A DNA stretch of 28,303 bases from an uncultured Pseudomonadota bacterium (GCA_913020725.1 CAJWCD010000032.1:1-28303); one strand, 5' to 3'; positions 554 through 18,285 are shown, counted from the first letter of the stretch. The notes: a model not told the origin generated them from the sequence alone. A program made the numbers and translations.

Positions 554-1564
554 TTAACCGTCGTAAGTCCGCGCACCAGAGTCTCGATGCCATGTCCGGT
601 AGAGGTGTCGTTTGAAACGAGGATCGGGGTGATCAGTGAAATGGCTCCGGTAGTGCCCCAACTCATGATTGTTCAGAAACTGCACCTGTCCTCGCTCCAA
701 AGGCGCTTCCAGCCACAAATCCGGGGAGTTGGCCACATCTTCCACGACCTCCAGAGCTTCTGACAGGACTACGTCCATTTCGAGGTTGGCGACTTGGTAG
801 CCCTTACGCACTAGCTGAACATTGGCCCGCGCCATCAATGATTCGCCATTCCAGATGAAGAAGGGTGCCCACGCGGTTTTTGGCGCGGTATCTGCGTGTT
901 CTTTTTGGCGGTCAAACAGCATGGGCTGGTAGAGGCGTTCCAGTCCTTTGGGGTGCTGTTCCAATAGGCGATTGTGGATCGAGTAGAAGCTGCAAAAACG
1001 ACTGACTCCCCCCTCGGGTGCGGGGTATTTGCAGAGCAAGCCCACATAGTTCGGCACCCGCACTCCAAAGGCGTTGTCGGTGTGAAAAACCAGTTCGGCA
1101 TTGGTGTGTGACCCCCGCACACCATAGCTGAAAGATTTTCCTGTGTCGGTGACATTGTACACCATCGTTCCGTCCCACTTTTGGGCGACTGTCCGCCCAA
1201 TCAATTGCGAAAGCACCCAATAGCACGACACGATCTCCTCGTCCTCCATCGGCATCCCCTCCAATATGCAAAACCCACAACCCTTGTCGAGAATGAACTT
1301 GGCCTGAATCGTGATTTCACGCAAATGGGGAATCTCGAAATCGTCCGGATGCCGTAAAATCAATGGAAGCGGATGCTCCCACAAAACTTCCAGCATCGTC
1401 TTGATTTCTGCTAGGGTTGAGTCAGAAATACGGATCGTCCAAGCCTCCGGAACCAGTTGCTCCGCAAGCCACGCTCGGCCATCGCTGATGGAGTGAGACA
1501 GGATTTGCGGTGCGGCCCCAGTGGTCAGGTCTAGGCTCCCCGGAGGAACAGGACAGGAGAACAT
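554..1564 (-). CDS. TauD/TfdA-family Fe(II)/2-oxoglutarate dioxygenase
   Basis: FHTDNAF (HxD), VGLLC...GGVSRF and distal GQVQFLNNHELGHYRSHF motifs, plus RHLYRTW. Start is uncertain: ATG 1564 chosen, ORF extends to 1651. Confidence 0.88.
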   Translation of the reverse strand: MFSCPVPPGSLDLTTGAAPQILSHSISDGRAWLAEQLVPEAWTIRISDSTLAEIKTMLEVLWEHPLPLILRHPDDFEIPHLREITIQAKFILDKGCGFCILEGMPMEDEEIVSCYWVLSQLIGRTVAQKWDGTMVYNVTDTGKSFSYGVRGSHTNAELVFHTDNAFGVRVPNYVGLLCKYPAPEGGVSRFCSFYSIHNRLLEQHPKGLERLYQPMLFDRQKEHADTAPKTAWAPFFIWNGESLMARANVQLVRKGYQVANLEMDVVLSEALEVVEDVANSPDLWLEAPLERGQVQFLNNHELGHYRSHFTDHPDPRFKRHLYRTWHRDSGARTYDG

Positions 1565-1788
1565 CTCAAGAGGTAGAGTGTTGCGGTAGAATTGCAGCGT
1601 CAGGTGGTTAGGCGGACGATGGGAAAACACCCGGAGCAACATCATCACCATCCCCGCTTTGGCATTTCAAGCTGAAAGGGGCGGACGCTGGAATGGACGG
1701 TTTCGTGTTCTTTGATTCACTCGTCCTCATTGAGGTGGTAGAATGGGACGGAGTCGAACCCCAAGCTTTTTCAAACAACCTGACGCAG

Positions 1789-2687
1789 ATGGCCTCCCTG
1801 TCGTTTTCCCTGACGCAACTGCACTACTTTGTGACCGCAGCCCACACGCTCAACCTGACGCGGGCTGCACGGGAGTGCCCTGTCTCGCAGCCCTCGATCT
1901 CCGGAGCCGTGCATCATTTGGAGGAGATGTTTTGTACCCAGCTTTTCCATCGTGATCCCTCACGCGGGTTGTCGTTGACGACTTCCGGAACGCAGTTGCA
2001 GGAACTTGCAGAATCCTTGCTCGCTCAAGCCCACCAGCTTGAATCCCAAATGAATCCGGGAACATCGGAGGAAGCCCTCAAGGTTGGTTGCCTGATGACA
2101 CTGGAGGCACTCATCATGCCCGCCATGATCCAGTTGTTTCAAGAACGATCCCCCGGAATCATGCTGGCACATGAAACCGCACATCAGCAGGAACTACTGG
2201 AATGGGTTCATCGTGGAGCAGTGGAGTTGACCTATGACATGCAGATTGCAGAGGGCATGGGTTTCACACCACTGGGCGAGGCGCAGTTACCGCCCTACGC
2301 GATTCTCGCGCCAGACTCCTCTTGGGCACAGCAAGACGCCGTTTCCCTGTTTAGAATTGGCGGAGCAACCACTGGTGCTGCTAGACCTTCCGATGAGCCG
2401 GGATGACTTTTTACCCTCTTCGAGGATTTGGGGGTGCGCCCCAAGATCGCCCATCGGGAGGCATCGCTGAATATGGTGTGCAGCATGGTCGCCAACGGGC
2501 TGGGCTATTCCATCCTCAACGCCCACTCCAAAACTCAAACCGCACAGGACGGCAAGCCGTTTGTCGCCCGCTCCTTTGTGGAAACACTACGCCCCCTGCG
2601 TTTTGACGCAGTTTGGTCGGAACGGCGACCGGGTTTCTGGACTTTTGCCGGGAAACGGTTGCGCAGTGGATGCCCGATTTCGAGTAA
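1789..2687 (+). pseudogene. LysR-type regulator (HinK-like subgroup), frameshifted
   Basis: HTH FSLTQLHYFVTAA...SQPSISGAVHHLEE. The frame shifts at ~2351 (continues ELAEQPLVLLDLPMSRD), at ~2410 (LFEDLGVRPKIAHREASLNMVCSMVANGLGYSIL) and at ~2632 (FLDFCRETVAQWMPDFE*, stop 2685-2687). Confidence 0.85.
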
Positions 2688-2743: not shown

Positions 2744-3661
2744 ATGAAGATCATCGACGCTCATCAGCACTTTTGGGACATTGAAACCAACCATCACCCG
2801 TGGTTGTGCGACCAGCCGGTGCCCTTTCGGTACGGGGATTACTCGGCACTCCAAAAGAACTACCTGCCGGAGGATTACCGTGATGATGCGAAATACTTTG
2901 ACCTCGCAGGCTCTGTCTTCGTTGAAGCAGAATGGACTCCAGACGATCCACAGGGGGAAGTGTCGTGGGTCTCACAACTGCGTAAGCAAGCACAACTCCC
3001 TTCGGTGATGGTTGCGCAAGTTTGGCTGCACCGGGACGATGCCGAGGCCGTGCTGTCCAGCTATGGACAGGTGGACTTTGTGCGCGGGATCCGACACAAA
3101 CCGACATCTGCAACGGCTCCCGGCAAGGTCGTGCCGGGCACTCCAAAGTCCATGAGTGACCCGAATTGGCGTCGGGGCTACGCCTTACTTGCTCCAAACG
3201 GGTTGAGCTTTGACTTGCAAACCCCATGGTGGCAGCTTGCGGAAGCTCGAGAGTTAGCCGAGGATTTTCCTGAAACCAGCATCTTTCTGAACCACACCGG
3301 ACTGCCTGCGGATCGTTCCAAGGAAGGGTTATCAGGCTGGCGCAAGGCGATGAAGCATTTTGCTCAAGCACCGAACACTGCCGTGAAAATCTCCGGACTG
3401 GGATGCAGGGGTCGGGTCTGGTCGGTTGCAGAAAACCACCGTGTGGTGCTGGAGACCATTGAGATTTTTAGTCCACAACGTTGCATGTTCGCCTCAAATT
3501 TTCCTGTGGATGGACTGGTGGGCAGCTACAAGACGATCATGGGCGGCTTTCTAGCGATCACCGAGCCGTTTTCTGAAGCAGAGCGCAATGCCATGTTTCA
3601 CGACAATGCCGCTAAGTTCTATCGAATCAATCAACCTCTCTTTCCTAAAAAGGCTTTGTGA
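2744..3661 (+). CDS. Amidohydrolase-2 family protein (sugar-lactonase-like)
   Basis: IIDAHQHFWD, VRGIRH, GLSFDLQ, LNHTGLP, VKISG and RCMFASNFPVD motifs. Confidence 0.9.
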   Translation: MKIIDAHQHFWDIETNHHPWLCDQPVPFRYGDYSALQKNYLPEDYRDDAKYFDLAGSVFVEAEWTPDDPQGEVSWVSQLRKQAQLPSVMVAQVWLHRDDAEAVLSSYGQVDFVRGIRHKPTSATAPGKVVPGTPKSMSDPNWRRGYALLAPNGLSFDLQTPWWQLAEARELAEDFPETSIFLNHTGLPADRSKEGLSGWRKAMKHFAQAPNTAVKISGLGCRGRVWSVAENHRVVLETIEIFSPQRCMFASNFPVDGLVGSYKTIMGGFLAITEPFSEAERNAMFHDNAAKFYRINQPLFPKKAL

Positions 3662-4551
3662 ACACAACCTCGCGTTTTGTCCCACCCACCCGCATTGGAT
3701 TTGTGGGGCTTGGCATCATGGGCGTACCGCTGGTACAGCGGTTTCTGGAAAAGGGCCTGTCGGTCACAGTTTGGAACTTGGAACCGGAGCGGTTTGCTCT
3801 GGTTCAGGACGCAGGTGCAGTTTGGGTAGATTCTCCCGCAGCAGTTTGTACGGCATCTGAGGTTGTCTTTGTCTGTGTCCTTGGCGATGATGCTCTTGCA
3901 AGCGTCTGCTTGGGAGAACACGGATTTGTGCAGGCCAAAGGAGCTTCGCTGCTGGTTGATTTCTCAACCTCCTCCCCTGCAGCTACCTTGCGGGTCGCTG
4001 CACAGTTGCAGGAAGCCACCGGCCTCGTATGGTTGGATGCTCCCATGTCCGGAGGCCCGCAAGCAGCACGGGAGGGCAAGCTAACACTGCTGGTTGGTGG
4101 AGACTCCAAAGTCTATGAGCAAGCAAAATCCCTCTTGTCACTGGTGTCCTCCAACCTCACCCGTATGGGTGGTTTGGGTTCAGGACAAAAGACTAAGATT
4201 CTCAATCAGTTGCTCGTTGGCGTGAATTATGTCCTCATGGCAGAACTGCTGACAACCGCAAAGGCCGCAGGCATTGACCCGCATCAGCTTCCGGAATGCT
4301 TGAAAGGGGGCATGGCAGATAGTACCATCCTGCAACGCATTTTTCCACAGATGGCGTCCGGCGACTTCAATCCTCCCAAAAGCTACGCACGGCAACTCAA
4401 CAAAGACCTCAAATCTGTTAAGGTGTTTGTGGAAAACCTGAAATTGGAGCTGCCTGTTGTCGCCACTGCCATTCAACAGTATCGCAACTACACTGAAGCA
4501 GGAAATGAGATGGAGGATGGGGCTTCCGTCTCTCGCCTGTATGAAGAATAA
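3658..4551 (+). CDS. NAD(P)-dependent beta-hydroxyacid dehydrogenase (3-hydroxyisobutyrate/tartronate semialdehyde reductase family)
   Basis: IGFVGLGIMG Rossmann motif, LDAPMSGG, catalytic KILNQ. GTGA overlap with the upstream gene. Confidence 0.9.
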   Translation: MNTTSRFVPPTRIGFVGLGIMGVPLVQRFLEKGLSVTVWNLEPERFALVQDAGAVWVDSPAAVCTASEVVFVCVLGDDALASVCLGEHGFVQAKGASLLVDFSTSSPAATLRVAAQLQEATGLVWLDAPMSGGPQAAREGKLTLLVGGDSKVYEQAKSLLSLVSSNLTRMGGLGSGQKTKILNQLLVGVNYVLMAELLTTAKAAGIDPHQLPECLKGGMADSTILQRIFPQMASGDFNPPKSYARQLNKDLKSVKVFVENLKLELPVVATAIQQYRNYTEAGNEMEDGASVSRLYEE

Positions 4552-4665
4552 CAAACTGACCACTACCAAGGCATCATTGTTGCTCTCTTCAAAGCCATCC
4601 GCATCATGATCGAGATCGACAAGAGCATCGACCAACGCGGCAGTTGGCCTGATACAATTCAGTGA
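4552..4665 (+). pseudogene. C-terminal remnant resembling a type ISP restriction-modification enzyme
   Basis: Translates as QTDHYQGIIVALFKAIRIMIEIDKSIDQRGSWPDTIQ*. This resembles the HYQKI.VAL.ETIR.M.EID..I...GGWP tail of type ISP enzymes. No start codon. Confidence 0.55.
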
Positions 4666-4772
4666 ATCAGGAGATCAACAAGTTTGAAGACGCAGGAAAC
4701 ATGGACCCAATTCTTGTAATCAGAGCGGCAAATAATTTCTGAAACCTCAAACCTTCAAGGGAGCAAAGCATC

Positions 4773-6158
4773 ATGACCGGAATCACTCGCCAGCTTGCAG
4801 AATTTGCAGCAAATCTTAAACCTAAGGACATTCCCGAAGAGGTGGTCGCACGTACCAGACTGCTCATTCTAGACATCACAGGAATCATGGTGCGTGCTCG
4901 TCATGACGCAGAGTCGACTCCGAGCATGATGGGCGCTATCCAAAGGCTCGGGCTGAATCAAGGACGCTACCTTGTGTTGGGCGACCCCACCGGCTACGCC
5001 TCTTCAGCAGCGGCGCTGATCAACGGGACTCTGGCCCATTCCCTCGATTTCGACGACACCCACGCCGCCGCATCGCTGCATTCCTCCGCACCCATTTTTC
5101 CTGCGGCCCTGACCGCAGCGGAAATGACTTCGGCCTCGGGACGGGATCTGATTGCAGCTTGCGTGGCAGGCTATGAAGTGCAAGTGCGCCTTGCCCTCGC
5201 GCTCAACCCCTCCGATCACTACGACCGTGGATTTCACCCGACCGCGACCTGTGGCGTTTTCGGGGCCGCCGCAGCTGCGGGCCGTCTGCTCGGACTCGAC
5301 GCAGAAGGCATCCAAAGTGCTTTCGGCATCGCCCTCTCCCAGTCCGCCGGTTCCATGCAGTTTCTTGCCGATGGCGCTTGGACCAAGCGTTCCCATGTTG
5401 GACAGGCGGCCTCCAACGGACTGCTCTGTGCGACCTTTGCCGCAGAAGGTTTCCGCGGACCTGCTGAAGCCTTCGAGGGCAACTGGGGGTTCCTGAGAAG
5501 TTATGCCCCGCACGCAGAGCCGGAGAAGGCCGTGAAGGCCCTCGGAGAAAAATGGGAGACTCTCGAACTCGCAGTCAAACCTTATCCCTCCTGCCGCTAC
5601 ACTCATGCTCCGATGGATGGTCTGGTTGCGCTGAGGAACGAGCAAGCTCTGGATCCGGACGCCATTGAATCTGTCGAAGTCGGGGTTTCCGCCACCGGAC
5701 ACAAGCTGATCGGAGAGCCGCAACATCTGAAAACCCACCCGGTGAGCATTGTTGACGGGCAGTTCTCGATGCCCTTCTGTGCCGCCGTGGTTCTGCGTCA
5801 CGGCAATCTGCTGTGGGACGACTACCCCGTCCAACTCAAGGACCAGGAAACCCTTGCCCTTTGCCGAAAAGTAAACACAGTGGTGGACGAACGCGCCGAA
5901 GCCACGTTCCCCGACAGCATGTCTGGTGTCGTGACGGTGAAGACGGGTCAGGGCAGCTTTGAGACCTTCGTCGGGCTTCCGAAGGGCGAACCTGGCAACT
6001 TCATGAGCGAGGATGAGTTTCGCGCCAAGTTCAGCGGACTCTGCGAACCCTATCTCGAAGAAAACCGGCTGGAGCAGCTTGCGGATGCGCTGCTCCAGCT
6101 CGATGGAGCAGCCAACGTGACGGAGGTGTTCTCCCTCAGTCGTCCCCAAGCAGGGTAA
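4773..6158 (+). CDS. MmgE/PrpD family protein
   Basis: AALINGTLAHSLDFDDTH, GFHPTATCG, KPYPSCRYTH, QFSMPF and PKGEP motifs. GGAG RBS upstream. Confidence 0.93.
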   Translation: MTGITRQLAEFAANLKPKDIPEEVVARTRLLILDITGIMVRARHDAESTPSMMGAIQRLGLNQGRYLVLGDPTGYASSAAALINGTLAHSLDFDDTHAAASLHSSAPIFPAALTAAEMTSASGRDLIAACVAGYEVQVRLALALNPSDHYDRGFHPTATCGVFGAAAAAGRLLGLDAEGIQSAFGIALSQSAGSMQFLADGAWTKRSHVGQAASNGLLCATFAAEGFRGPAEAFEGNWGFLRSYAPHAEPEKAVKALGEKWETLELAVKPYPSCRYTHAPMDGLVALRNEQALDPDAIESVEVGVSATGHKLIGEPQHLKTHPVSIVDGQFSMPFCAAVVLRHGNLLWDDYPVQLKDQETLALCRKVNTVVDERAEATFPDSMSGVVTVKTGQGSFETFVGLPKGEPGNFMSEDEFRAKFSGLCEPYLEENRLEQLADALLQLDGAANVTEVFSLSRPQAG

Positions 6159-6160
6159 CC

Positions 6161-6679
6161 ATGGTTGCCAAAGCAAAGGAAGTCGGCAAGCAAAGATACC
6201 GCGAATCCTACGGACGTTCCCTCGAGGATTTCGAAATCGGGGATGTTTACGAGCACCGCCCTGGACGCACCATCACTGAAAGCGACAACACTTGGTTTAC
6301 CCTGCTCACCATGAATCAGCACCCCCTGCACTTCGACGCGGAGTACGCCGCCAAGAGTGAATTCGGGAAACCTGTCGTCAATTCCTGCCTCACCCTCTCC
6401 ATCGTTGCAGGTATGAGCGTTTCTGACATCAGCCAGAAAACCATCGCCAATTTAGGCTGGGACAAGATCCGACTGACGGCACCGGTTTTCGTAGGTGACA
6501 CCCTCTATGCCGAATCGGAGGTGCTTGCAATCCGTGAATCGAAGTCCCGTCCCAGTCAAGGCATCGTGAAGGTTCGGACAACAGGCATGAAGCAGGACGG
6601 CACCAAGTTCATCAGCTACGAACGCACCATGCTGATCCCCAAACGCGGCTTTGCCGTGGACGACAAAGCGGGCTACTGA
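6161..6679 (+). CDS. MaoC-family (R)-specific enoyl-CoA hydratase/dehydratase
   Basis: GRSLEDFEIGDVYEHRPGRTITESDN...MNQHPLHFDAEYA hot-dog hydratase motif, plus PVFVGDTLYAESEV. Confidence 0.92.
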   Translation: MVAKAKEVGKQRYRESYGRSLEDFEIGDVYEHRPGRTITESDNTWFTLLTMNQHPLHFDAEYAAKSEFGKPVVNSCLTLSIVAGMSVSDISQKTIANLGWDKIRLTAPVFVGDTLYAESEVLAIRESKSRPSQGIVKVRTTGMKQDGTKFISYERTMLIPKRGFAVDDKAGY

Positions 6680-6683
6680 AAAC

Positions 6684-7853
6684 ATGGCTTCTTCGCAGAG
6701 CAGCACACCAGACGAGGAGGCGCTGATCCTCGAGAGCATCGGAAAATTCCTAGAGCGCGATGTCCGACCCAGTGTCCGTCGTCTGGAAGCCGCCGATGAA
6801 TACCCACACGAAATTGCGGACAGGCTCGCCGCACTAGGGCTTTTTGGCGCCACCATTCCTCCTGCATACGGAGGCCTTGGCCTGAACGCGACAATCTACT
6901 CACAGATCGTCGAAAAAGTGGCAGCGGTTTGGATGGCCGTCTCAGGCATCTTCAACTCCCACCTCATCATGTGCAGCGTCATTGAGCGCTTCGGCACCGA
7001 GGCGATGAAGCAGGCCTGCCTGCCACGCTTCGCCACGGGCGAGCTGCGCGGAGGGATTGCCCTGACCGAACCCGACTGTGGCACCGACCTGCAGGCGATC
7101 CGTACCCGTGCCGTCCGGGAGGGTGATGAATACATCCTCAACGGTGCTAAGCTGTGGTGCACGAACTCCGTTGAGGGGAATGTGCTCGCGGTGCTTGCCA
7201 AGACGGAGCATCTGCCAGATACACCAAGGCACAAGGGGATCAGCCTCTTTCTCGTCACAAAGGAGATGGGCTACCGGGCCAGCAAGCTACAGAAGCTCGG
7301 CTACCGGAGCATCGACACCGGTGAGGTTTTTTTTGAAAACGTCCGGGTTCCCGCTGATCACCTGATCGGCACCGAAGAGGGAGGGGGGCTGAACCAAATC
7401 CTGAGCGGATTGGAACTGGGGCGGATCAACGTTGCGGCACGGGGAGTCGGCATCGCACGGGCGTGCCTCGAGGAATCGGTGGCTTATGCTCAGGTGCGAC
7501 ACACTTTCGGCAAACCGATTTGCGAACACCAAACGATCCAGATCAAGCTCGCCGACATGGCCACCCGTGTCGATGCCGCACGCCTGCTCACCGAACAAGC
7601 GGCCCGTGCCTACGACCGTGGGGAACGGTGCGACATGGAGGCCGGGATGGCGAAGCTCAATGCCACCGAGGCAGCACTCGAGAATTCGCTGGAGGCCATG
7701 CGAATTCATGGTGCCTACGGCTATTCACCGGAATACAACATCGAACGCTACTACCGTGACGCCCCCCTGCTCGCCATCGGGGAGGGGACCAACGAACTCC
7801 AACGGCTCATCATTGCACGGCAGCTCGTGGAGCGGAATCCCGTTCAGAACTGA
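6684..7853 (+). CDS. Acyl-CoA dehydrogenase
   Basis: IALTEPDCGTDL, LNGAKLWCTN, RINVAARGVG, IHGAYGYS.EY.IERYYRDA and IGEGTNELQR motifs. Confidence 0.95.
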   Translation: MASSQSSTPDEEALILESIGKFLERDVRPSVRRLEAADEYPHEIADRLAALGLFGATIPPAYGGLGLNATIYSQIVEKVAAVWMAVSGIFNSHLIMCSVIERFGTEAMKQACLPRFATGELRGGIALTEPDCGTDLQAIRTRAVREGDEYILNGAKLWCTNSVEGNVLAVLAKTEHLPDTPRHKGISLFLVTKEMGYRASKLQKLGYRSIDTGEVFFENVRVPADHLIGTEEGGGLNQILSGLELGRINVAARGVGIARACLEESVAYAQVRHTFGKPICEHQTIQIKLADMATRVDAARLLTEQAARAYDRGERCDMEAGMAKLNATEAALENSLEAMRIHGAYGYSPEYNIERYYRDAPLLAIGEGTNELQRLIIARQLVERNPVQN

Positions 7854-7870
7854 AAAACTAAGAGACCGTC

Positions 7871-9058
7871 ATGACCCTTCCGCTTGCAGGTCTCCGTGTT
7901 CTGGCAGTCGAACAGTACGGCGCAGGCCCCTTTGGCACGCAGTTTCTTGCAGACCAAGGTGCCGAGGTGATCAAGATCGAAAATCCCAATGACGGTGGAG
8001 ACTTCGCCCGCGCAGTGGGTCCCCATTTCTTCACTCCGGAACACTCCCAATTCTTCCACGCCTACAATCGCAACAAGAAAAGTCTGACCCTCGACCTTTC
8101 AAAATCCGCAGGCACCGAGATTTTCAGGGACATGACGCGGACTGCCGATGCGGTCGTCTCTAACCTGAGGGGTGATGTTCCGGAGAAGCTGGGACTGACC
8201 TACGCGGCACTGAAAGAAGTCAACGAAAAGATCGTCTGTGCTCACCTTTCGGCTTACGGACGCAGCGGATCCCGTGCAAACTGGCCGGGCTTCGACTACC
8301 TGATGCAAGCGGAGGCCGGCTACTTCTCGCTGACCGGAGAGCCTGGCGGGCCGCCGACACGTTTTGGATTGTCGGTGGTCGATCAGATGACTGGACTCGC
8401 TCTTGCCTACGCGGTGCTGGCGGGTATCACTGGAGCCAGAGAGACAGGAAAGGGACGGGACCTCGACGTCAGCCTCTTTGATGTGGCACTTTCCAACTTA
8501 AGCTACCCCGCAATTTGGTACCTCAACGAGAACCACGTCACCGGACGCCTCGAACGTTCCTCCCATCCCGTGTTGACCCCTTGCGCCCTTTACCGCACTG
8601 CGGACGGCTGGATCTACATCATGTGCAACAAGGAAAAATTCTGGCCCGCCCTCTGTGGGGTGCTGGGACAGGACGACTGGGCGGAGGACAAACGCTTCAT
8701 GGATTTCAAGAGCAGGTTGGAGCACCGCGAGCAGATCAGGGAAATGCTGGACGACGTGCTTTCTGGACAAACCACTGCCCACTGGCTCGAGCTCTTTGCC
8801 GGACAGATCCCCGCTGCCCCAGTCAATTCCCTACAGGAGGCTCTCGAAAATCCTTTTGTGAAAGACGAAAACCGCTTGCAAGAACTGGAGTTGGAAGGAT
8901 ACGGAAACTACCGGACCATTGCTTCTCCTGTGAAATGTGGAGAGCCGACCCCAGCACGTCCTGCCCCAGGACTCGGACAGCATACTGAAGAACTGCTGAC
9001 AAAACTGGGTTACAACCAGACACGACTTGCCGAACTAAAAAAAATGGGGGTCATCTGA
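7871..9058 (+). CDS. CaiB/BaiF family III CoA-transferase
   Basis: PLAGLRVL..QYGAGPF..QFLADQGAEVIKIE, NRNKKSLTLDL, GFDYLMQAEAG and APGLGQHT motifs. Confidence 0.95.
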   Translation: MTLPLAGLRVLAVEQYGAGPFGTQFLADQGAEVIKIENPNDGGDFARAVGPHFFTPEHSQFFHAYNRNKKSLTLDLSKSAGTEIFRDMTRTADAVVSNLRGDVPEKLGLTYAALKEVNEKIVCAHLSAYGRSGSRANWPGFDYLMQAEAGYFSLTGEPGGPPTRFGLSVVDQMTGLALAYAVLAGITGARETGKGRDLDVSLFDVALSNLSYPAIWYLNENHVTGRLERSSHPVLTPCALYRTADGWIYIMCNKEKFWPALCGVLGQDDWAEDKRFMDFKSRLEHREQIREMLDDVLSGQTTAHWLELFAGQIPAAPVNSLQEALENPFVKDENRLQELELEGYGNYRTIASPVKCGEPTPARPAPGLGQHTEELLTKLGYNQTRLAELKKMGVI

Positions 9059-9167
9059 AGTCCTGCTCCAGATGACGACCACCTTGACCCGCATACGGAG
9101 TATCTAGGAAGCCCTGCCTAGGAACGGGTAGCTGCGCACAGCGCACAGCGCCGCTACATTTAAGACG

Positions 9168-9203
9168 ATCAAAAGTTCTGATGACCCTATCAGTTAATCG
9201 TAT
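9168..9203. promoter_or_regulatory. Tandem LysR-type binding boxes upstream of the monooxygenase operon
   Basis: ATC-AAAAGTTCT-GAT (9168-9182) and ATC-AGTTAATCG-TAT (9189-9203). Both fit T-N11-A, their centres are 21 bp apart, and they lie in an AT-rich intergenic region. Confidence 0.5.
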
Positions 9204-9287
9204 TTCACAGCATCGGAAAAATCGCGTACTTTTGTTGAGCATTTTTTAGACACGAGTCCCCCTTCTCTTTTCCACCCAAGGAGCCGC

Positions 9288-10745
9288 ATGATACGCACAG
9301 GAGCCGAATATCTTGAATCCATCCGGGATGGACGTGAGGTCTGGATTGACGGTGAGCGCGTCAAGGACATGTCCACGCATCCAGCCTTCAAGCCGATCAT
9401 TGACGTGCGGGCGCGGATGTACGACATGGCGCACGAAGCCCTGTACCAAGAGCAGTTGACGTACCAAGACGAGGAAACCGGCGAACTCAACACCACCTAC
9501 CACAAGCCTCCCCGCACCCGTGAGGATTGGTACGAGAAGGACGTGGCGCTGGACGCGCTCATGAACGACATCGGCGGCGTGGTCATCCGCATCAGCGACG
9601 AATCGGTTGGAGAAATGTGGTCGCTGTTTGACGGCAAGGACGTGCTCAACGAGGTCGATCCGCAATTCGCCACGAACATCGAGCAGCACATCCTCCGGAC
9701 CACCCGTGAGGATCCCTTCCACGTCTCGGCCAACACGGACCCCAAGGGCGACCGTTCCAAGCCTCCACAGGAGCAGGATCCGGACATGCTGCTGCATGTG
9801 GTCAAGGAAACCGACGCTGGAATCATTGTGCGTGGTGCAAAGTACGAAACGGCCGCAGCCTATTCCAACCAAGCGTTCGTGAAGCCGACCATCGCAGCAT
9901 GGTCCGGGAACGAAACGCTTTCGGATTACGCGGTGAGCTTCATGTGCGACATGGGGGTTCCGGGCCTCAAGCACATCTGCCGCAGCGGATTTGCCGGACG
10001 TGCGCCCGTTGAGGATTATCCGCTCGCCAACCGTTTTGACGAAGTGGACACCCTGCTCGTGTTCGATAATGTTTTGATCCCATGGGAAAACGTCCTCTTC
10101 TATCGCCACACCAAAGCAGCGGCGTTTATCCGTGCGACGCTCCATCGCTACAGCGCCTATCCCTTCGTGTTGCGCATCCGCTACATGGCTGACATGATGA
10201 TCGGTGCGGCACTTTTCAACGTGAAGCAGACCGGGCTGGACAAGAACCCGGCGGTCTGCGAAAAGCTGGCAACACTGGCCTGTTATCGTGAAGGCATCCA
10301 CGCGCACCTGACGGCCTCCATCGCGCTGGCAGAGCAGAGTCCAGGAGGGTTGTTGATGCCCAACCAGTCGTTGCTCTACACCGGACGGGTCCACGCCTGC
10401 TCGCGGCTTCCGGAGATGATGCACCTCGCCCGCGAACTCTGCGGCGGGCAGATTTGCATCACGCCGAACCACGCCGCCTTCCAAGACCCGGAGTCCGGAC
10501 ATTGGCTGGAAAAATACTACACGGTCAACGAAAACTGGGTCGCGGAGGATCGCCGCAAGCTGCTCGCGCTTGCACGGGATCTGCTCAACTCGGATTACGC
10601 CGGACATCGGCTCACCTTCCAGTTGTTCGCCCAAGCGCCCCCGTTCGCACACCTCAACGCGGTGTACAACAATTTCGACTTCTCCGGGCCGCTGGATTTT
10701 GTCCGCAATGCCGCCGGATTGTCGGAGAAGGTCATGCAAACTTGA
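9288..10745 (+). CDS. HpaB-family (4-hydroxyphenylacetate 3-hydroxylase-like) FADH2-dependent monooxygenase, oxygenase component
   Basis: RTGAEYLESIRDGREVWIDGERV, TDPKGDRS, VVKETDAGIIVRGAK and YPLANRFDEVD..LVFDNVLIPWENV motifs. AAGGAG RBS. Confidence 0.92.
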   Translation: MIRTGAEYLESIRDGREVWIDGERVKDMSTHPAFKPIIDVRARMYDMAHEALYQEQLTYQDEETGELNTTYHKPPRTREDWYEKDVALDALMNDIGGVVIRISDESVGEMWSLFDGKDVLNEVDPQFATNIEQHILRTTREDPFHVSANTDPKGDRSKPPQEQDPDMLLHVVKETDAGIIVRGAKYETAAAYSNQAFVKPTIAAWSGNETLSDYAVSFMCDMGVPGLKHICRSGFAGRAPVEDYPLANRFDEVDTLLVFDNVLIPWENVLFYRHTKAAAFIRATLHRYSAYPFVLRIRYMADMMIGAALFNVKQTGLDKNPAVCEKLATLACYREGIHAHLTASIALAEQSPGGLLMPNQSLLYTGRVHACSRLPEMMHLARELCGGQICITPNHAAFQDPESGHWLEKYYTVNENWVAEDRRKLLALARDLLNSDYAGHRLTFQLFAQAPPFAHLNAVYNNFDFSGPLDFVRNAAGLSEKVMQT

Positions 10746-10757
10746 ACAGGTGATTTG

Positions 10758-11174
10758 ATGGCACACGAACGCATCCGAAAATTCAACACCAAGGACACCT
10801 ATCCGGATCAGGACTTGGACAACGACCTCTGCCAAGTGGTGCGGGCGGGAAACATACTCTTTTTGCGGGGACAGGTCGGCACCGATTTTGACGGCAAGCT
10901 TGTCGGCCTCGGCGATGCGGAAGCCCAGACAGATCAGGCGCTGCGGAATGTCCAACAACTGCTCGAAGAAGCGGGAAGCTGCCTCGAGCACATCTGCAAG
11001 ATCACGATTTACTTGATCGATCGTGGATACCGGGACCCGGTGTATCGCACGGTCGGCAAGTGGCTCAAGGGCGTGTTTCCGGTCTCCACCGGAGTTGTGG
11101 TTGCAGGGCTTGCAAAACCTGAATGGCTGATGGAGATTGACGTGATCGCCGTGATTCCGGAGGAAGGAAAATGA
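10758..11174 (+). CDS. RidA/YjgF family protein (HinL-like)
   Basis: HERIRKFNTKDTYPDQDLDNDLCQVVRAG, LRGQVG and PVSTGVVVAGLAKPEWLMEIDVIAVIP motifs. Confidence 0.9.
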   Translation: MAHERIRKFNTKDTYPDQDLDNDLCQVVRAGNILFLRGQVGTDFDGKLVGLGDAEAQTDQALRNVQQLLEEAGSCLEHICKITIYLIDRGYRDPVYRTVGKWLKGVFPVSTGVVVAGLAKPEWLMEIDVIAVIPEEGK

Positions 11175-11842
11175 CGCTTTCCTTAGTCGGACGCTGCCCG
11201 GAAACTGGAATGCTCGGTGGGGTCATCACCTCATCGAGCATCTGCGTTGCAAGCCGTTGTTTGTGCACTCGTACAGGCGTTGGTGCGGCACTCACGCAAA
11301 ATGTCACGGACCCGGCCTTGGGTGACAAAATGCTCGACTTGCTGGAGTCCGGAGCCGATGCAAGCACGGTGATTTCCCAAGTTGTCGCAGAAGCCGATTA
11401 CATGGCGTGGCGACAACTCGTACTTTTGGATTCCGGGGGAAACTCCGCAATTCACACTGGAGCAAAAGCCTTGGGGAAACACGCCTCTGCGCAGGGGAAG
11501 CAGTGTGCTGCTGCCGCAAATCTCTTGGCCGATGAGCAGGTGCCCCAGGCAATGGTCACGGCCTTTGAACAAAGCTCCGGACACCTCGCTCTGCGGTTGA
11601 TCACCGCCCTTGAAGCCGGAATCAAAGCTGGAGGCGAAGCAGGTCCGGTGCGCTCTGCCGGAGTGCAAGTCGTTCATAAAGTTTCGTGGCCCATTGTTGA
11701 TTTGCGAGTTGATTGGGACGACGATCCCATTCCCAAGCTGCGCACGATTTGGAACGAATACCAGCCGCAACTCGAACCCTATGTCACCCGCGCCCTCAAT
11801 CCGGAAGCCGCTCCGTCTTACGGAGTTCCGGGGGATTTGTGA
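11171..11842 (+). CDS. DUF1028 family protein (putative Ntn-hydrolase-like, HinH-like)
   Basis: N-terminus (M)TLSLVGRCPETGMLG...SSS..VASRC, plus AGGEAGPVRSAG and DLRVDW. ATGA overlap with ridA. Confidence 0.88.
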   Translation: MTLSLVGRCPETGMLGGVITSSSICVASRCLCTRTGVGAALTQNVTDPALGDKMLDLLESGADASTVISQVVAEADYMAWRQLVLLDSGGNSAIHTGAKALGKHASAQGKQCAAAANLLADEQVPQAMVTAFEQSSGHLALRLITALEAGIKAGGEAGPVRSAGVQVVHKVSWPIVDLRVDWDDDPIPKLRTIWNEYQPQLEPYVTRALNPEAAPSYGVPGDL

Positions 11843-11862
11843 ACTGCATTTTCCTTTCCTGA

Positions 11863-12465
11863 GCGACCACCTTCACTCCAGACGATCTCTACGCCGGAAA
11901 GCTTCCGCAGGGGCGGGTGATCGTGTACGATGACGACCACTACTACCTCGGCGGGGTAATTGCGGAACTCTGCCGCAATCACGGTTGCGAGGTCACGCTG
12001 GTGACTCCGGCGGCCATTGCATCGTCGTGGACCATTCACACGCTGGAGCAGGACCTCATTCAGGCCGACCTCTTGAAAAAGGGCATCCAAATTCTGCCAC
12101 ATCATTTTGTACGTCCCGGCAAAAACACAAACCCGGAAGCCGTTCACATTTACACCGGAGCAGCAAATATTCTGGATTGTGATGCTTTGGTGTTGGTCAC
12201 GGCCCGTTTGCCCAATTCTGAACTCGAATCCGGCTTGGAACAAGTCCAGAGTTCATGGGCCGATGCCGGAATAAAAAGCGTCACCCGCATCGGCGATGCT
12301 TTGGCTCCGGCCACCATCGCGGCTGCGGTCTATTCAGGACACCGCTACGCCCGCGAGTTGGACGAAGTAATTGATCCAGATGCCGTACCTTTCGAGCGGG
12401 AACTGACCGAACTTGCTCCCGAATCGGATTGGAATACATTTTGGCAGTGCGGATTCAACTCGTAA
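11863..12465 (+). pseudogene. C-terminal ~200 aa of a histamine/trimethylamine dehydrogenase family flavoenzyme (5'-truncated)
   Basis: TPDDLYAGKLPQGRVIVYDDDHYYLGGVIAEL...CDALVLVTARLP...IGDALAPATIAAAVYSG...VPFERE closely resembles the histamine dehydrogenase C-terminus. There is an in-frame stop at 11860, and the FMN barrel and Fe-S cysteines are absent. Confidence 0.85.
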
Positions 12466-12575
12466 GTGCAACAGCGGATTGAAGCCGCGTGCCTTTTTCT
12501 CAGCCGCTCAGTGCCTTTTACAAAAGAGGTGTGCCACACTGCTTGGAAGAGCAACTCTACAACTTGGAGAATCCG

Positions 12576-12635
12576 ATGGCACAAGAAATCCCGACCGGCG
12601 AGGGCTTGAACTTTGAGCAGGTCTGGCTGATGTTT
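12576..12635 (+). pseudogene. DUF3782-like (QETD-repeat coiled-coil) gene, 5' part, interrupted
   Basis: GGAGA RBS, then MAQEIPTGEGLNFEQVWLMF, then an abrupt switch to AT-rich sequence and a stop. Confidence 0.7.
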
Positions 12636-12742
12636 TATGATTTTTAAAATATTCTAAAATATGAAACAACCTTAAAGGATTTGAAGTCTTTATGGAAAAC
12701 GATTATTTCATAAATCATTTAAAAATCTAAACTGGCAAAACC

Positions 12743-13918
12743 ATGCAGTTAAAAAATAGAGAAACACTCCCAGTTGATTCCCATTCAGCCTGTCTGGTTG
12801 GACGTGCCTGGATTCCAAATAGCCCGCAAGGTCCCTCACCCGTATGGATCCATGATGGAAACGTCTATGATCTTGCACCCTTTTCGCCAACCGTCAGTGA
12901 ATTACTTGAAAAAGAACCCCTGGTGGAAACCCTTCAGAGTTGGTCTGATCTTGAGCTTATAGGATCTTTAGAAGAGCTTTTGGACAACACGCCTCATGAT
13001 CAGCGTGATTCTTCAAAACCTTGGTTTTTAGCTCCATGTGATTTGCAGGCAATCAAGGCCAGCGGTGTGACCTTTGTCTCAAGCATGCTCGAACGGGTCA
13101 TTGAGGAGCAGGCTCGGGGAGACTGGACCAAGGCAGAAGAGATTCGTAAACAGATTCATGAATTGGTTGGTGACAACCTTGCTGAGATCCAGCCGGGTTC
13201 TGCTTCAGCAATGAAGGTCAAAGAGGTTCTCATCAAACAAGGTGCTTGGTCTCAATACCTGGAAGTCGGGATTGGTCCAGATGCCGAAATCTTCACCAAA
13301 AGCCAACCCATGTCTGCCGTGGGAACGGGAGCAGAAGTTGGTATTCATCCAGGATCACATTGGAACAATCCTGAACCTGAGATCGTATTGGCCGTTAATT
13401 CCAAAGGTAAAATCGTCGGTACTGCTTTGGGGAACGATGTAAATCTCAGAGACTTCGAGGGACGCAGCGCCCTCCTTCTCGGGAAAGCCAAAGACAATAA
13501 TGCATCGTGTGCGATCGGACCATTCATAAGGTTATTTGATGATCAATTCAGTCTTGATGATGTTCGTCAGGCCAATATTACTCTCTCGGTGGAGGGCCCT
13601 GAGGGTTTTACACTTGAGGGCAGCAGTTCCATGAAGCATATCAGCAGGGATCCTTTGGAACTGGTTCAACACTGTGCTGGATCGCATCATCAATATCCCG
13701 ATGGATTGATGCTTTTCCTCGGCACCATGTTCTCCCCCATCCAGGATCGCGATGAGCCAGGACAAGGGTTCACCCACAAAGTTGGTGACATCGTCTACAT
13801 TCAGACTCCCCTACTTGGATCATTGATCAACCGTGTCAATACATGCGATCAGATCCCACCTTGGACTTTTGGAACGGGAGCCTTGATGCGGAACCTTGCG
13901 CAACGTGGGCTTCTCTGA
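12743..13918 (+). CDS. xylX: Fumarylacetoacetate hydrolase family, 2-keto-3-deoxy-pentonate dehydratase (XylX-like)
   Basis: APCDLQAIKASGVTF..SMLERVIEEQARGD, WSQYLEVGIGPDAEIFTK, WNNPEPE, GNDVNLRDFEGRSALLL.KAKDNNASCAIGP and GFTHKVGD match the Caulobacter XylX type. Confidence 0.85.
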   Translation: MQLKNRETLPVDSHSACLVGRAWIPNSPQGPSPVWIHDGNVYDLAPFSPTVSELLEKEPLVETLQSWSDLELIGSLEELLDNTPHDQRDSSKPWFLAPCDLQAIKASGVTFVSSMLERVIEEQARGDWTKAEEIRKQIHELVGDNLAEIQPGSASAMKVKEVLIKQGAWSQYLEVGIGPDAEIFTKSQPMSAVGTGAEVGIHPGSHWNNPEPEIVLAVNSKGKIVGTALGNDVNLRDFEGRSALLLGKAKDNNASCAIGPFIRLFDDQFSLDDVRQANITLSVEGPEGFTLEGSSSMKHISRDPLELVQHCAGSHHQYPDGLMLFLGTMFSPIQDRDEPGQGFTHKVGDIVYIQTPLLGSLINRVNTCDQIPPWTFGTGALMRNLAQRGLL

Positions 13919-14143: not shown

Positions 14144-15145
14144 TTAAGGGGCTACGGGGAGCAGCACAATTTTTGGGGCGGGGGAACGACCCCTATTGAG
14201 ATCAGAAAACGCGGCTGAACCTTCACTCAGTGGGCGTTCCTCAACCCAGATGAGATCGCCCAAGACTCCGGAGTGCAACGCCTGCAACGCAGCTTGCAAG
14301 TCTGTGGGCGTGTAGGTGTAGGAACCGATAACCGTGATTTCGGAGAGGGTAATTTTGCGGAAATCGCAAATGCCGGAGCCTTCCTGCAAGCCAATGTGCA
14401 TGAGGACGCCTCCGGGGCGCACCGCCCGGATTGCGAGTTTCCGGGTTGCCTCCATGCCCACCGCATCCACGACCAATTCAAAACGGTTTTCAAGATCGAC
14501 GGGTTCCTGTCCGGGATCGAAGACGTCGCAACTGCCTGTGCGGAAAGCGGTTTCGCGGCGCAGGGGATTGGTGTCGCAGAGCAGGATTTCCGGACAACCG
14601 TGAGAGCGCAAGATTAGCGCGGCCAGCAAACCGATGGAACCTCCGCCGATCACGAGTGCCCGACCTTCGGAAACAGGGCGGTGCAGGGCTCGTTCCGCCA
14701 AATGAACTGCATGAAGCGAGGTCGCCGCAGGTTCGGTGAGTGCGGCGTGGGTGGGTTTCATCCCTGCGGGCATCGGGATCAGGTTCTGTTCCGGAATCGT
14801 GATGAACTCGGCAAAGGCTCCCGGATAGTTCATACCGATGAGTTTGCGGTTCGTGCAGAGGTTGCTGCGTCCGCCCCGGCAATCCTCGCAGGTTCCGCAA
14901 GCAATCAGCGGATTCAACACCACCTGCTGCCCCGCTTGCTTTCCGGAAACGATAACCCCGGCGGCTTCGTGCCCCAAAATCAACGGTGGCACTCGACGGG
15001 TATCCTCGCCGTGGTAGGCGTGCATGTCTGAACCACAAATGCCCACGGCCTCAATGCGGATTTGGGCTTCGCCTGCGCCAAGCTCGCGCAACGGTTCTTC
15101 CCGATACATCACCTCATTGGTATTGGTGTAAACAAGGGCTTTCAT
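14144..15145 (-). CDS. hpsP: Zn-dependent alcohol dehydrogenase, HpsP-like DHPS dehydrogenase
   Basis: GICGSDMH, GHEAAG, CGTCEDC...SNLC and GGGSIG motifs. It lies 11 bp downstream of hpsN in the same operon, so the hpsP name rests partly on context. Confidence 0.72.
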   Translation of the reverse strand: MKALVYTNTNEVMYREEPLRELGAGEAQIRIEAVGICGSDMHAYHGEDTRRVPPLILGHEAAGVIVSGKQAGQQVVLNPLIACGTCEDCRGGRSNLCTNRKLIGMNYPGAFAEFITIPEQNLIPMPAGMKPTHAALTEPAATSLHAVHLAERALHRPVSEGRALVIGGGSIGLLAALILRSHGCPEILLCDTNPLRRETAFRTGSCDVFDPGQEPVDLENRFELVVDAVGMEATRKLAIRAVRPGGVLMHIGLQEGSGICDFRKITLSEITVIGSYTYTPTDLQAALQALHSGVLGDLIWVEERPLSEGSAAFSDLNRGRSPAPKIVLLPVAP

Positions 15146-15156
15146 ATCGTGATGCT

Positions 15157-16752
<1,596 letters not shown>

Positions 16753-16828
16753 CCTGAACGAAACCCCACGCAAGAGCGGAACGGAACGCGGGAAAAAATT
16801 GGGTACTCGTCAAAAAATCAACAACTGA

Positions 16829-18001
16829 TCACGCACTCCGGAACAGTTTGGTCAGCACAAACTCACGGTGGCCGAGGGCTTCGGCACAGGTGTGGCGTCC
16901 GTTGGCCGTGCGGATCGTGCAGTGGACCAAGGCGTTTCCAGCCTGATCGAGGTTCAACTCACGCTTGAGGATTCCGGAGACATCAAGATCAATGTGTTCG
17001 CTCATGGTTGCCGCCGTGTGTGGGTTGGCCGTGAGCTTGATCACCGGCTCAATAGGATTGCCGATCACATTGCCCTGCCCGGTGGGGAAGAGATGCACCG
17101 TGAAGCCTGCCGCCGCTTGCAACGTTACGCACTCGGCAGCGGCAGAAGAGGTGTCCATGAAGTACAGCCCCGGACCTCGTGCAGGTGCTTCGGCAGGTTC
17201 CAGCACATCAATGAAGTTGGTTTGCCTGCCGATTTTCTGGAGGTTCCCGAACGCCTTTTCCTCGATAGTCGTCAAACCACCCGCGATGTTGCCCTTGGTC
17301 GGCTGCGATTCGGAGAGGTCGTTGGTCTTGTTCTCTAGGATGAAATCGTTGTAGTCGTTCCAAGTCTTGAGAAATTTCTGCTGCGCCTCCGGATTTGCCG
17401 CTCGTGTGGCACAAACCTGCTCGGCTCCTGTGAGTTCCGAGGTCTCTCCGAAACAAAGGTGCACTCCGAGCGGATCGAGCTTGTCCATCAGACTGCCGAC
17501 GGTTGGATTTGAGCCAAGTCCGGAAGTGGTGTCCGATTCCCCGCACTTGACGGAAATCCAGAGCTCCGAGAGTGGACATTCCTCGCGCTGAAGTTCGGTC
17601 GCCCATTGCACATACTCTTGGGCTTTGCGAGCCGCCTGCATTGCTGTGGCGAGATCGCCCCCGCCTTCGATGCTGAATCCGGACACGGGCTTGCCCGTTT
17701 CGGCAATGCCGTCCACCACGCGCTTGGTCCAGCCCGGCTCAATCCCGATCACGATCACCGCAGCAACATTCGGATTACGCCCTGTGCCGATGATCGTCCG
17801 GAAGAAGAGTTCAAGGTCAGCACCGAACTGCAAGCGCCCGTAGCTGTGCGAAATCGGCAGTGTGCCCTTGATGGTGTTTCCCACCATCTCGACACAGGCA
17901 TTTGAGATATCATCCACTGGCAAAATGACAACATGGTTGCGCACCCCCACGCGCCCGTTCTCCCGTCGGTAGCCTTGAAAGCTTTGTGGAAAATCAGCCA
18001 T
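16829..18001 (-). CDS. suyB: (2R)-sulfolactate sulfo-lyase beta subunit (UxaA family)
   Basis: [58 protein letters not shown] and [10 protein letters not shown] motifs. TGATG overlap with suyA. Confidence 0.85.
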
Positions 18002-18285
18002 CACCACCTCTTCGTCTTCACATTGTGGACATGGACATAGCCCCCCTTGGGAATGTCCGCGATGGCGCGACCGATGTCGTTGCCGTACTTGATGATGGTG
18101 TCGTCAGCCTTGATGTCGGCGAGTGCGAGTTTGTGGCCCAGCGAAACTTCTGCAAGAGCCTGGACCGAGACGGTTTCATCTGTCTCCATGATCCAGCCCA
18201 TCGCCTGCTGGCCCGCTGTGACTTTTTCCACCACGACCACCCCAACGGTGTCGGCAGGTTCGTGGGCAATAAAATGTGTGGTCAT
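18001..18285 (-). CDS. suyA: (2R)-sulfolactate sulfo-lyase alpha subunit (SAF domain)
   Basis: 94 aa with [29 protein letters not shown] and [11 protein letters not shown]. Confidence 0.85.

Follow-up and report, generated by a model that had tools for sequence, protein, structure and literature searches.

What does an oxygenase of the HpaB family, whose relatives are named 4-hydroxyphenylacetate hydroxylases by database sources, do next to genes for a RidA-family protein and a DUF1028 protein? The question is raised by a contig of 28,303 nucleotides from an uncultured Pseudomonadota bacterium (GCA_913020725.1, CAJWCD010000032.1:1-28303), which is referred to here as the window (the whole of contig C32 in a 3.45 Mb assembly that is 93% complete; the source is a marine SAR324 bacterium, with other SAR324 bacteria as its closest relatives). 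A sequence-only reading of this DNA had placed a two-component HpaB enzyme in the position of HinF, the monooxygenase of the Pseudomonas histamine pathway, and the neighbourhoods of related genes, the complementary occurrence of HinF, and the RidA and DUF1028 groups shared by both kinds of cluster support this placement. From these comparisons we consider it likely that the three intact genes at 9288-11842 form the part of a Hin-type pathway for histamine and imidazole-4-acetate that attacks the ring, with the HpaB-family two-component oxygenase probably doing the job of HinF. The four elements that had been named (oxygenase, RidA, DUF1028 and a histamine-dehydrogenase-like fragment) were all found on the plus strand, using Pfam, a flavoprotein model and comparison with a SAR324 relative, locus L004:

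9288 to 10745, plus strand: HpaB-family oxygenase, 485 amino acids (Pfam HpaB_N, E 1.9e-84; HpaB, E 9.4e-54)
10755 to 11174, plus strand: RidA-family protein, HinL type, 139 amino acids (PF01042, E 6.1e-21)
11171 to 11842, plus strand: DUF1028 protein, HinH type, 223 amino acids (PF06267, E 8.1e-61)
11862 to 12465, plus strand: histamine dehydrogenase remnant, about the last 200 codons (homology to L004; open reading frame 11917-12465 with a GTG start)

The oxygenase had been thought to start at 9168; its open reading frame in fact opens at 9288. The start of the DUF1028 gene overlaps the RidA stop by 4 bases. All three genes are under purifying selection (dN/dS 0.02-0.10, with dS saturated), and the oxygenase gene gives dN/dS values of 0.016-0.02 against its SAR324 relatives.

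In the known pathway, HinFLHG turn imidazole-4-acetate into aspartate under the control of HinK, a LysR-type regulator that senses imidazole-acetate, according to a review (PMC8231116). Table 3 of a further paper lists HinF as a FAD-monooxygenase (EC 1.14.13.5), HinL as an enamine deaminase, HinH and HinG as amidases (the latter EC 3.5.1.8) and HinI as an aspartase (PMC6467879). The window resembles the Hin clusters of P. putida U and P. aeruginosa PAO1 (PA5393-PA5390) in that RidA and DUF1028 genes adjoin after the gene of a flavin oxygenase, with a LysR gene linked, and in the window's relatives an M20 deacylase of the HinG type and an aspartase of the HinI type follow. It differs from them in its oxygenase, an unrelated HpaB-family protein that would require a separate flavin reductase, whereas HinF is an FMO-like single-component enzyme, and in having no deacylase (HinG, the M20-type N-formylaspartate deformylase, EC 3.5.1.8); in addition, relative L004 would oxidise histamine with a flavin/iron-sulfur dehydrogenase and not with the HinC aminotransferase. 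We take HinH to be the DUF1028 protein, from the gene order of clusters in proxy genomes, and the intermediates to be imidazolone-acetate, formiminoaspartate and N-formylaspartate, as in classical biochemistry. A literature search whose coverage left out most subscription journals and the primary Hin papers found no HpaB-type imidazole-acetate oxygenase in print, and DUF1028 was mentioned in one paper of the searched literature, on an unrelated subject.

The oxygenase falls within the HpaB family by its domains, with matches over positions 1-269 of 270 of HpaB_N (PF11794) and 5-201 of 202 of HpaB (PF03241). Its scores against the two equivalog models for 4-hydroxyphenylacetate 3-monooxygenase are far lower than the cut-offs (213.6 against 480.2 bits for TIGR02309, and 170.5 against 885.2 bits for TIGR02310). 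The best solved relative is HpaB of T. thermophilus (2YYJ; E 1e-52, 182 bits). With this enzyme and its E. coli counterpart (6QYI) the oxygenase shares fold family, length and the arginine of the flavin hydroperoxide site, as well as the presence of a reductase beside orthologues; it differs in being only about 30% identical, in two active-site residues (Tyr104 to Glu, His142 to Ser) and in the lack of a homoprotocatechuate pathway.

These two residues belong to the HpaB catalytic triad Arg100-Tyr104-His142 (T. thermophilus numbering), described as highly conserved in a study in which the arginine stabilises the flavin hydroperoxide and the tyrosine and histidine hold and deprotonate the phenol (PMC10537072). 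Aligned to T. thermophilus HpaB, with a column confidence of about 0.8-0.9, the triad positions in our oxygenase are occupied by Arg101, Glu105 and Ser147. Across 82 orthologues, Arg101, Ser147 and also Asp104 are invariant (82/82 each), and Glu105 is found in 80. The chlorophenol and nitrophenol monooxygenases TftD and HadA use His289/His290 as catalytic base (PMC8342789), and this histidine aligns with Ala290, which is alanine in 80 of the 82 orthologues.

A different assignment, a 4-hydroxybutyryl-CoA dehydratase of the AbfD type, was suggested by an operon with CoA-transferase and acyl-CoA dehydrogenase genes upstream. The 4Fe-4S cysteine ligands of AbfD, which we take to lie near residues 99-103, would fall within residues 96-110 of the oxygenase, GGVVIRISDESVGEM, a segment without cysteine; solved AbfD-type chains score 113-124 bits against the oxygenase, as compared to 182 bits for HpaB. 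We rejected this assignment because the cluster site has no cysteine, the AbfD scores are lower, and orthologues elsewhere have no CoA-pathway neighbours.

If the oxygenase belongs to a Hin-type pathway, its orthologues should keep the corresponding company. A scan of species-representative genomes gave 80 loci with oxygenases 64-89% identical to ours, from Alphaproteobacteria, Burkholderiales, Actinomycetota, Chloroflexota and SAR324. Neighbouring open reading frames were picked with guidance from GC3 (a pick that is imperfect for the window, at 56% GC), clustered without bias and then assigned with Pfam. By a strict count a DUF1028 gene lies within 9 kb of the oxygenase in 55 of the 80 loci, and 49 of these 55 also carry RidA. 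LysR genes were found among the neighbours in 51 sources, and a flavin reductase gene stands just upstream in 23 loci, on the same strand in all of them. Also recurrent were M20 peptidases (clusters of 13 and 9 loci), class-III aminotransferases (9), aldehyde dehydrogenases (6), copper amine oxidases (5), aspartase-type lyases (5) and histamine dehydrogenase, together with Rieske oxygenases (16) and parts of ABC transporters. These recurrent neighbours match the published roles of HinG, HinC, HinD and HinI. In the nearest relative, L004, the gene order is reductase, HpaB, RidA, DUF1028 and full-length histamine dehydrogenase. The survey therefore agrees with the neighbourhood that had been proposed for this HpaB subfamily, in which RidA, DUF1028, M20 and histamine dehydrogenase recur.

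The occurrence of the two oxygenases across genomes points in the same direction. As HinF type we took an FMO-like protein of 430-446 amino acids that directly precedes RidA, DUF1028 and M20 genes in four loci, and whose homologues at 73-77% identity are named from many Pseudomonas species. Among 400 gammaproteobacterial genomes, 16 carry a DUF1028 protein of this type (counted in this sample if at least 50% identical to the window copy); six of these have the HpaB type only, eight the HinF type only, two have both and none has neither, and the remaining 384 genomes show neither oxygenase at the subfamily level. Among 231 alphaproteobacterial genomes the DUF1028 type occurs in 25, of which 16 have HpaB only, five HinF only, two both and two neither; three further genomes have an oxygenase without a DUF1028 match, two of them with this oxygenase at the end of a contig or close to it. 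Pooling the 631 proteobacterial genomes, 41 carry the DUF1028 type, with HpaB only in 22, the HinF type only in 13, both in four and neither in two, so that 35 of the 41 have exactly one oxygenase type (one-sided Fisher p = 1e-5, a value that is only indicative because related genomes are not independent). The mutual exclusivity with hinF that had been expected is thus largely seen as complementarity, with both types together in 4 of the 41. A tblastn search of the source genome, which is 93% complete, found no HinF-type gene when two proteins of the HinF type were used as queries with an E-value limit of 1e-6.

The two partner proteins are what ties the HpaB-type clusters to the HinF-type ones. 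In archetypal RidA proteins an arginine is essential for imine hydrolysis (PMC4433059). This arginine, part of a "PAR" motif in the solved structures, corresponds in the alignment to Ser111 of the window RidA, within the sequence "FPVSTG". Among 69 RidA orthologues the residue is serine 58 times, phenylalanine 10 times and cysteine once, and arginine does not occur. A P[VI]STG motif is common to the RidA copies of HpaB-linked and HinF-linked clusters, that of the window included. The window RidA is 52-73% identical to the RidA proteins of five HinF-linked clusters, and identities to the window copy overlap between the two kinds of cluster (medians of 69% and 64%); the sole other RidA-like match in the source genome is 35% identical.

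DUF1028 is present as a single copy in the source genome, and its only solved relative, 2IMH, has no assigned function. In a DUF1028 tree the window copy belongs to a clade that is set apart from distant DUF1028 proteins with a support of 98. Within this clade the five HinF-linked rows are nested at two or more places among the HpaB-linked ones; the nearest rows outside SAR324 are one HpaB-linked (L017) and one HinF-linked (L116). By these comparisons the RidA and DUF1028 proteins of HpaB-type and HinF-type clusters are members of the same orthologous groups, and the expected grouping of the window proteins with the HinL and HinH types is borne out against proxy clusters with the order FMO-like monooxygenase, RidA, DUF1028, M20, which is the order published for hinFLHG.

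A Hin pathway variant with an HpaB-family oxygenase in the place of HinF is therefore, as a prediction, the best-supported interpretation of the locus. Of the checks named beforehand as able to refute it, those that sequence allows (whether RidA and DUF1028 group with HinL and HinH, and whether HpaB homologues have that neighbourhood) turned out in its favour. In such a pathway, a flavin reductase would provide reduced flavin; it is encoded just upstream in relatives, and an unlinked gene would be needed here. The oxygenase, in which Arg101 is retained, would form a C4a-hydroperoxyflavin and hydroxylate the imidazole ring of imidazole-4-acetate. The HinH-type DUF1028 protein, which is predicted to be an amidohydrolase with the opened or oxidised ring as its substrate, and the arginine-less HinL-type RidA would then carry out hydrolysis and deimination towards N-formylaspartate, from which a deacylase, not encoded here, would free aspartate.

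Several observations weigh against this interpretation. Not all members of the wider family keep the HpaB triad, since one relative at 31% identity has His and Tyr at the two positions, and an invariant His286 lies four residues (one helix turn) upstream of Ala290, so that a shift in the alignment to TftD and HadA is possible. In 13 of the 80 loci neither RidA nor DUF1028 occurs in the sampled DNA, several of these being short contigs. Among them, oxygenases 67-71% identical to ours in Rhodopila (L005, L006, L071-L073) and Stellaceae (L008, L009) have neither partner within flanks of 8 kb. The four genomes with both oxygenase types, in G069 with HpaB and DUF1028 genes 1.1 Mb apart, imply that replacement is not strict. 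The Hin side of the RidA and DUF1028 comparison consists of HinF-type proxy clusters and not of the P. putida and P. aeruginosa proteins themselves.

The source genome adds gaps of its own to this list. It has no orthologous flavin reductase (the best reductase match is 29% identical) and no close M20 deacylase (the closest candidates share 23-30% identity with cluster-linked M20 proteins), which makes flux through the pathway uncertain in this organism. Finally, the alpha subunit of a Rieske ring-hydroxylating oxygenase recurs inside or beside some clusters (L115 6851-7957, L119 1457-2563, L121 8702-9802, L111 6830-7936, and in Caballeronia, for example L039 4931-6097). It lies between RidA and DUF1028 in some Gammaproteobacteria and is present in genomes of the HpaB type or the HinF type; this enzyme may have a modified substrate, or it may represent a third oxygenase.

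The gaps in the source genome raise the possibility that the locus is a relic, with intact genes in a pathway that has stopped because its regulator, reductase, dehydrogenase and deacylase are broken or absent. We regard this as somewhat doubtful. Two further features, upstream of the oxygenase, bear on it:

1693 to 2562, plus strand: LysR-type regulator gene (Pfam HTH_1 and a partial LysR_substrate match; in-frame TGA at 2404-2406)
9059 to 9287, no strand: spacer of 229 bases that separates the oxygenase from an unrelated CoA-transferase operon

Degradation is seen at the edges of the locus, which lacks an adjacent reductase gene and a nearby deacylase, has a truncated dehydrogenase and carries a stop in its LysR gene. 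The tblastn match of the LysR gene to a cluster-linked LysR spans 1798-2562 and passes through the stop. Read through with X, the protein is 35-39% identical to LysR proteins encoded beside HpaB-type and HinF-type clusters, and the in-frame TGA marks either a pseudogene or a sequencing error, the latter of which would count against a relic. In L004 the LysR gene is itself reduced to a remnant of 50 residues (76% identical), directly upstream of the reductase and HpaB genes, and the Flavin_Reduct gene (7484-7984 in that locus) immediately precedes HpaB, in a position that corresponds to the spacer of the window. Nucleotide homology of the window to L004 and to a second SAR324 relative, L003, begins only at 9278. 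The absence of both a flavin reductase and a deacylase from the window, as had been claimed, was borne out by domain searches for M20 deacylases and flavin reductases.

In the window a six-gene operon on the plus strand (2744-9058) separates the LysR gene from the oxygenase, where relatives carry the reductase gene. In L004 (303-6781) and L003 (739-7966) the module is preceded by genes for cyanophycinase, cyanophycin synthetase and an AstE/AspA-family (aspartoacylase-like) protein, whose copy in the source genome is on contig C56; that this protein stands in for the N-formylaspartate deformylase is speculation. A simple scan of 8900-12800 gave four promoter-like sites against 1.8 +/- 1.4 expected, none of them in the spacer upstream of the oxygenase, and five terminator-like sites against 4.4 +/- 2.6 expected; with no site in that spacer, the scan had no usable result.

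The fourth element of the cluster is itself decayed. The full-length L004 gene encodes 698 amino acids, occupies the same place after DUF1028 and scores 894 bits to histamine dehydrogenase of Nocardioides simplex (3K30), 891 bits to that of Rhizobium sp. (6DE6) and 535 bits to trimethylamine dehydrogenase. The window remnant matches only its C-terminus: the open reading frame at 11917-12465 has no Pfam match, aligns to the final 140 positions (506-645) of a FadH/OYE flavoprotein model with a length of 645 and is 77% identical in protein to L004 residues 506-697. In protein, the dehydrogenase homology begins at 11862, immediately behind an in-frame TGA; no start codon precedes the GTG at 11917 in this frame, and that GTG is no proper start. 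Of the full three-domain architecture, the N-terminal FMN (OYE) domain is missing and only the part that matches about residues 501-698 of L004 is present; nucleotide homology between the window and L004 is confined to 9278-11836 and 11915-12447. Identity between the remnant and L004 is 80, 91 and 44% at the three codon positions and the remnant contains no internal stop; the first ~500 dehydrogenase codons were therefore lost recently. The proposal that the oxygenase is fed by a flavin/Fe-S histamine dehydrogenase thus stands for relative L004, where the gene is intact; in the window only a dead remnant of this gene is left.

Seawater data indicate that this truncation is no artefact of one assembly. 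At least 86% of the sampled words of a 4-kb stretch were found in 13 sequencing runs from several studies, mostly marine or seawater metagenomes, one of which is possibly the source of this DNA. The junction between the CoA-transferase and the oxygenase is bridged by contigs of two independent metagenome runs (X2, 8822-9803; X4, 8852-10528). For the region after DUF1028 (11862-12449), three structural forms coexist in seawater metagenomes. The form of the window is represented by a 59-letter junction piece identical to 11837-11895 (depth 25.4 in X2 and 11.9 in X4), which spans 30 and 29 letters on its two sides, just below the bridging rule of 31. In the second form at least 88 other letters follow 11866 (X4, depth 22.3; X8; X10), and it rejoins the window at 12449 in run X14. 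The third has 566 to 1457 other letters ahead of 11862 (X2, X4, X10); translated by hand, the end of this sequence stays in the dehydrogenase frame and is similar to L004 at the corresponding point. Since the junction forms coexist across runs, the truncated dehydrogenase is a real variant in a polymorphic population. A short piece at about 11790-11820 has a several-fold higher summed depth, as if it were common to other abundant DNA. Parts left uncovered in some runs (for example 10274-11077 in X5) are not evidence of absence, and contigs of RNA run X14 cover parts of all three genes, which we do not count as proof of transcription, as an RNA library can hold DNA.

This structural polymorphism would fit a relic, as would the distribution of the oxygenase, found in only 4 of 88 sampled SAR324 genomes (three of the four in one other genus). 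With the closest relatives outside SAR324 being alphaproteobacterial (75-77% identity), this distribution makes it a patchy accessory module. The three core genes, however, have no stops and show the low dN/dS values given above, and the missing functions could be supplied in trans. Two-component oxygenases can accept reduced flavin from unrelated reductases, and the source genome has two unlinked flavin reductase genes. It also has an intact histamine dehydrogenase paralogue at a contig end (C42 22223-24301, locus L128 17724-19802), which scores 805 bits to 3K30, is 56% identical to the L004 enzyme and adjoins a BNR/sortilin-repeat protein in an unrelated context. A class-III aminotransferase gene and a glutamine-synthetase-like gene lie 13-15 kb from this paralogue.

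It is also conceivable, though we think it improbable, that the ring opened by the module is that of a different nitrogen heterocycle, or of a modified imidazole acid such as a methylated imidazole-acetate, imidazole-propionate or imidazole-lactate, with HinF and HpaB clusters as parallel systems and not as replacements for each other. The anticorrelation of the two oxygenase types, with exactly one in 35 of 41 genomes, speaks against parallel systems, although the retention of both in four would suit them, and the shared downstream enzymes form one orthologous group. The recurrent neighbours (histamine dehydrogenase, copper amine oxidase, aminotransferase with aldehyde dehydrogenase, M20 and aspartase) point to histamine, whereas in 18 of 76 rows, the window included, oxygenase, RidA and DUF1028 stand alone, and no enzyme that oxidises histamine is encoded within 8 kb. 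The Rieske oxygenases, PhyH dioxygenases and ABC importers beside Caballeronia-type clusters would likewise suit a substrate that needs an extra step. Last, an ordinary phenol hydroxylase acting on 4-hydroxyphenylacetate or a tyramine-derived acid would agree with the family membership, the database names and the layout of tyramine catabolism (amine oxidase, aldehyde dehydrogenase, HpaB), for which the nearby amine oxidases and aldehyde dehydrogenases could then serve, but is very improbable given scores below half of both HpaB equivalog cut-offs, Glu and Ser in place of the phenol-binding Tyr104 and His142 in 80-82 of 82 orthologues, no homoprotocatechuate dioxygenase (HpaD, either type) over cut-off in the source genome or among the 34 commonest neighbour clusters of orthologues, and conserved partners, RidA and DUF1028, that have no role in phenol catabolism.

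The remainder of the window holds genes of other kinds. The six-gene operon upstream encodes an Amidohydro_2 protein, a dehydrogenase resembling 3-hydroxyisobutyrate and tartronate-semialdehyde reductases, an MmgE/PrpD protein, a RipB/Ich-like (R)-enoyl-CoA hydratase (239 bits, cut-off 340), an acyl-CoA dehydrogenase and a family III CoA-transferase. Together with a TauD-family dioxygenase gene upstream of it (554-1651, minus strand), it resembles a pathway of the itaconate/mesaconate type, in which dicarboxylates are processed in a CoA-dependent manner. Downstream of the remnant, 12466-13918 consists of an AT-rich spacer and a gene of 391 amino acids with a weak C-terminal match to the fumarylacetoacetase family, in a stretch of 48-49% GC compared to 55-60% around it. 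The minus-strand genes at 14144-18007 include one of the histidinol-dehydrogenase family (15157-16458, 446 bits to TIGR00069), flanked by a Zn-dependent alcohol dehydrogenase gene and an altronate/galactarate-dehydratase-like gene, which is not a histidine-biosynthesis context.

To date, the only enzyme known to have imidazole-4-acetate monooxygenase activity is HinF, an unrelated FMO-like protein. We lean towards the view that a widespread and conserved "HpaB" subfamily, labelled 4-hydroxyphenylacetate hydroxylase in databases, is a two-component imidazole-4-acetate monooxygenase, and that the oxygenase slot has been refilled repeatedly around a fixed core of RidA and DUF1028, with the Rieske enzyme as a possible further player. 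If this is true, thousands of 4-hydroxyphenylacetate 3-hydroxylase entries would be mislabelled (our first search scored 5808 relatives), and the catabolism of histamine and imidazole-acetate would be far wider than surveys of hinF suggest, with soil Burkholderiales, actinomycetes, acetic acid bacteria and bacteria of the open ocean among its carriers. It would also provide a clear case of non-orthologous displacement, in which the oxygenase was exchanged while the two enzymes that follow it were conserved, and would give DUF1028 and the arginine-less type of RidA a defined substrate. The window itself documents how the module is being taken apart in a natural marine population, in which three structural forms coexist.

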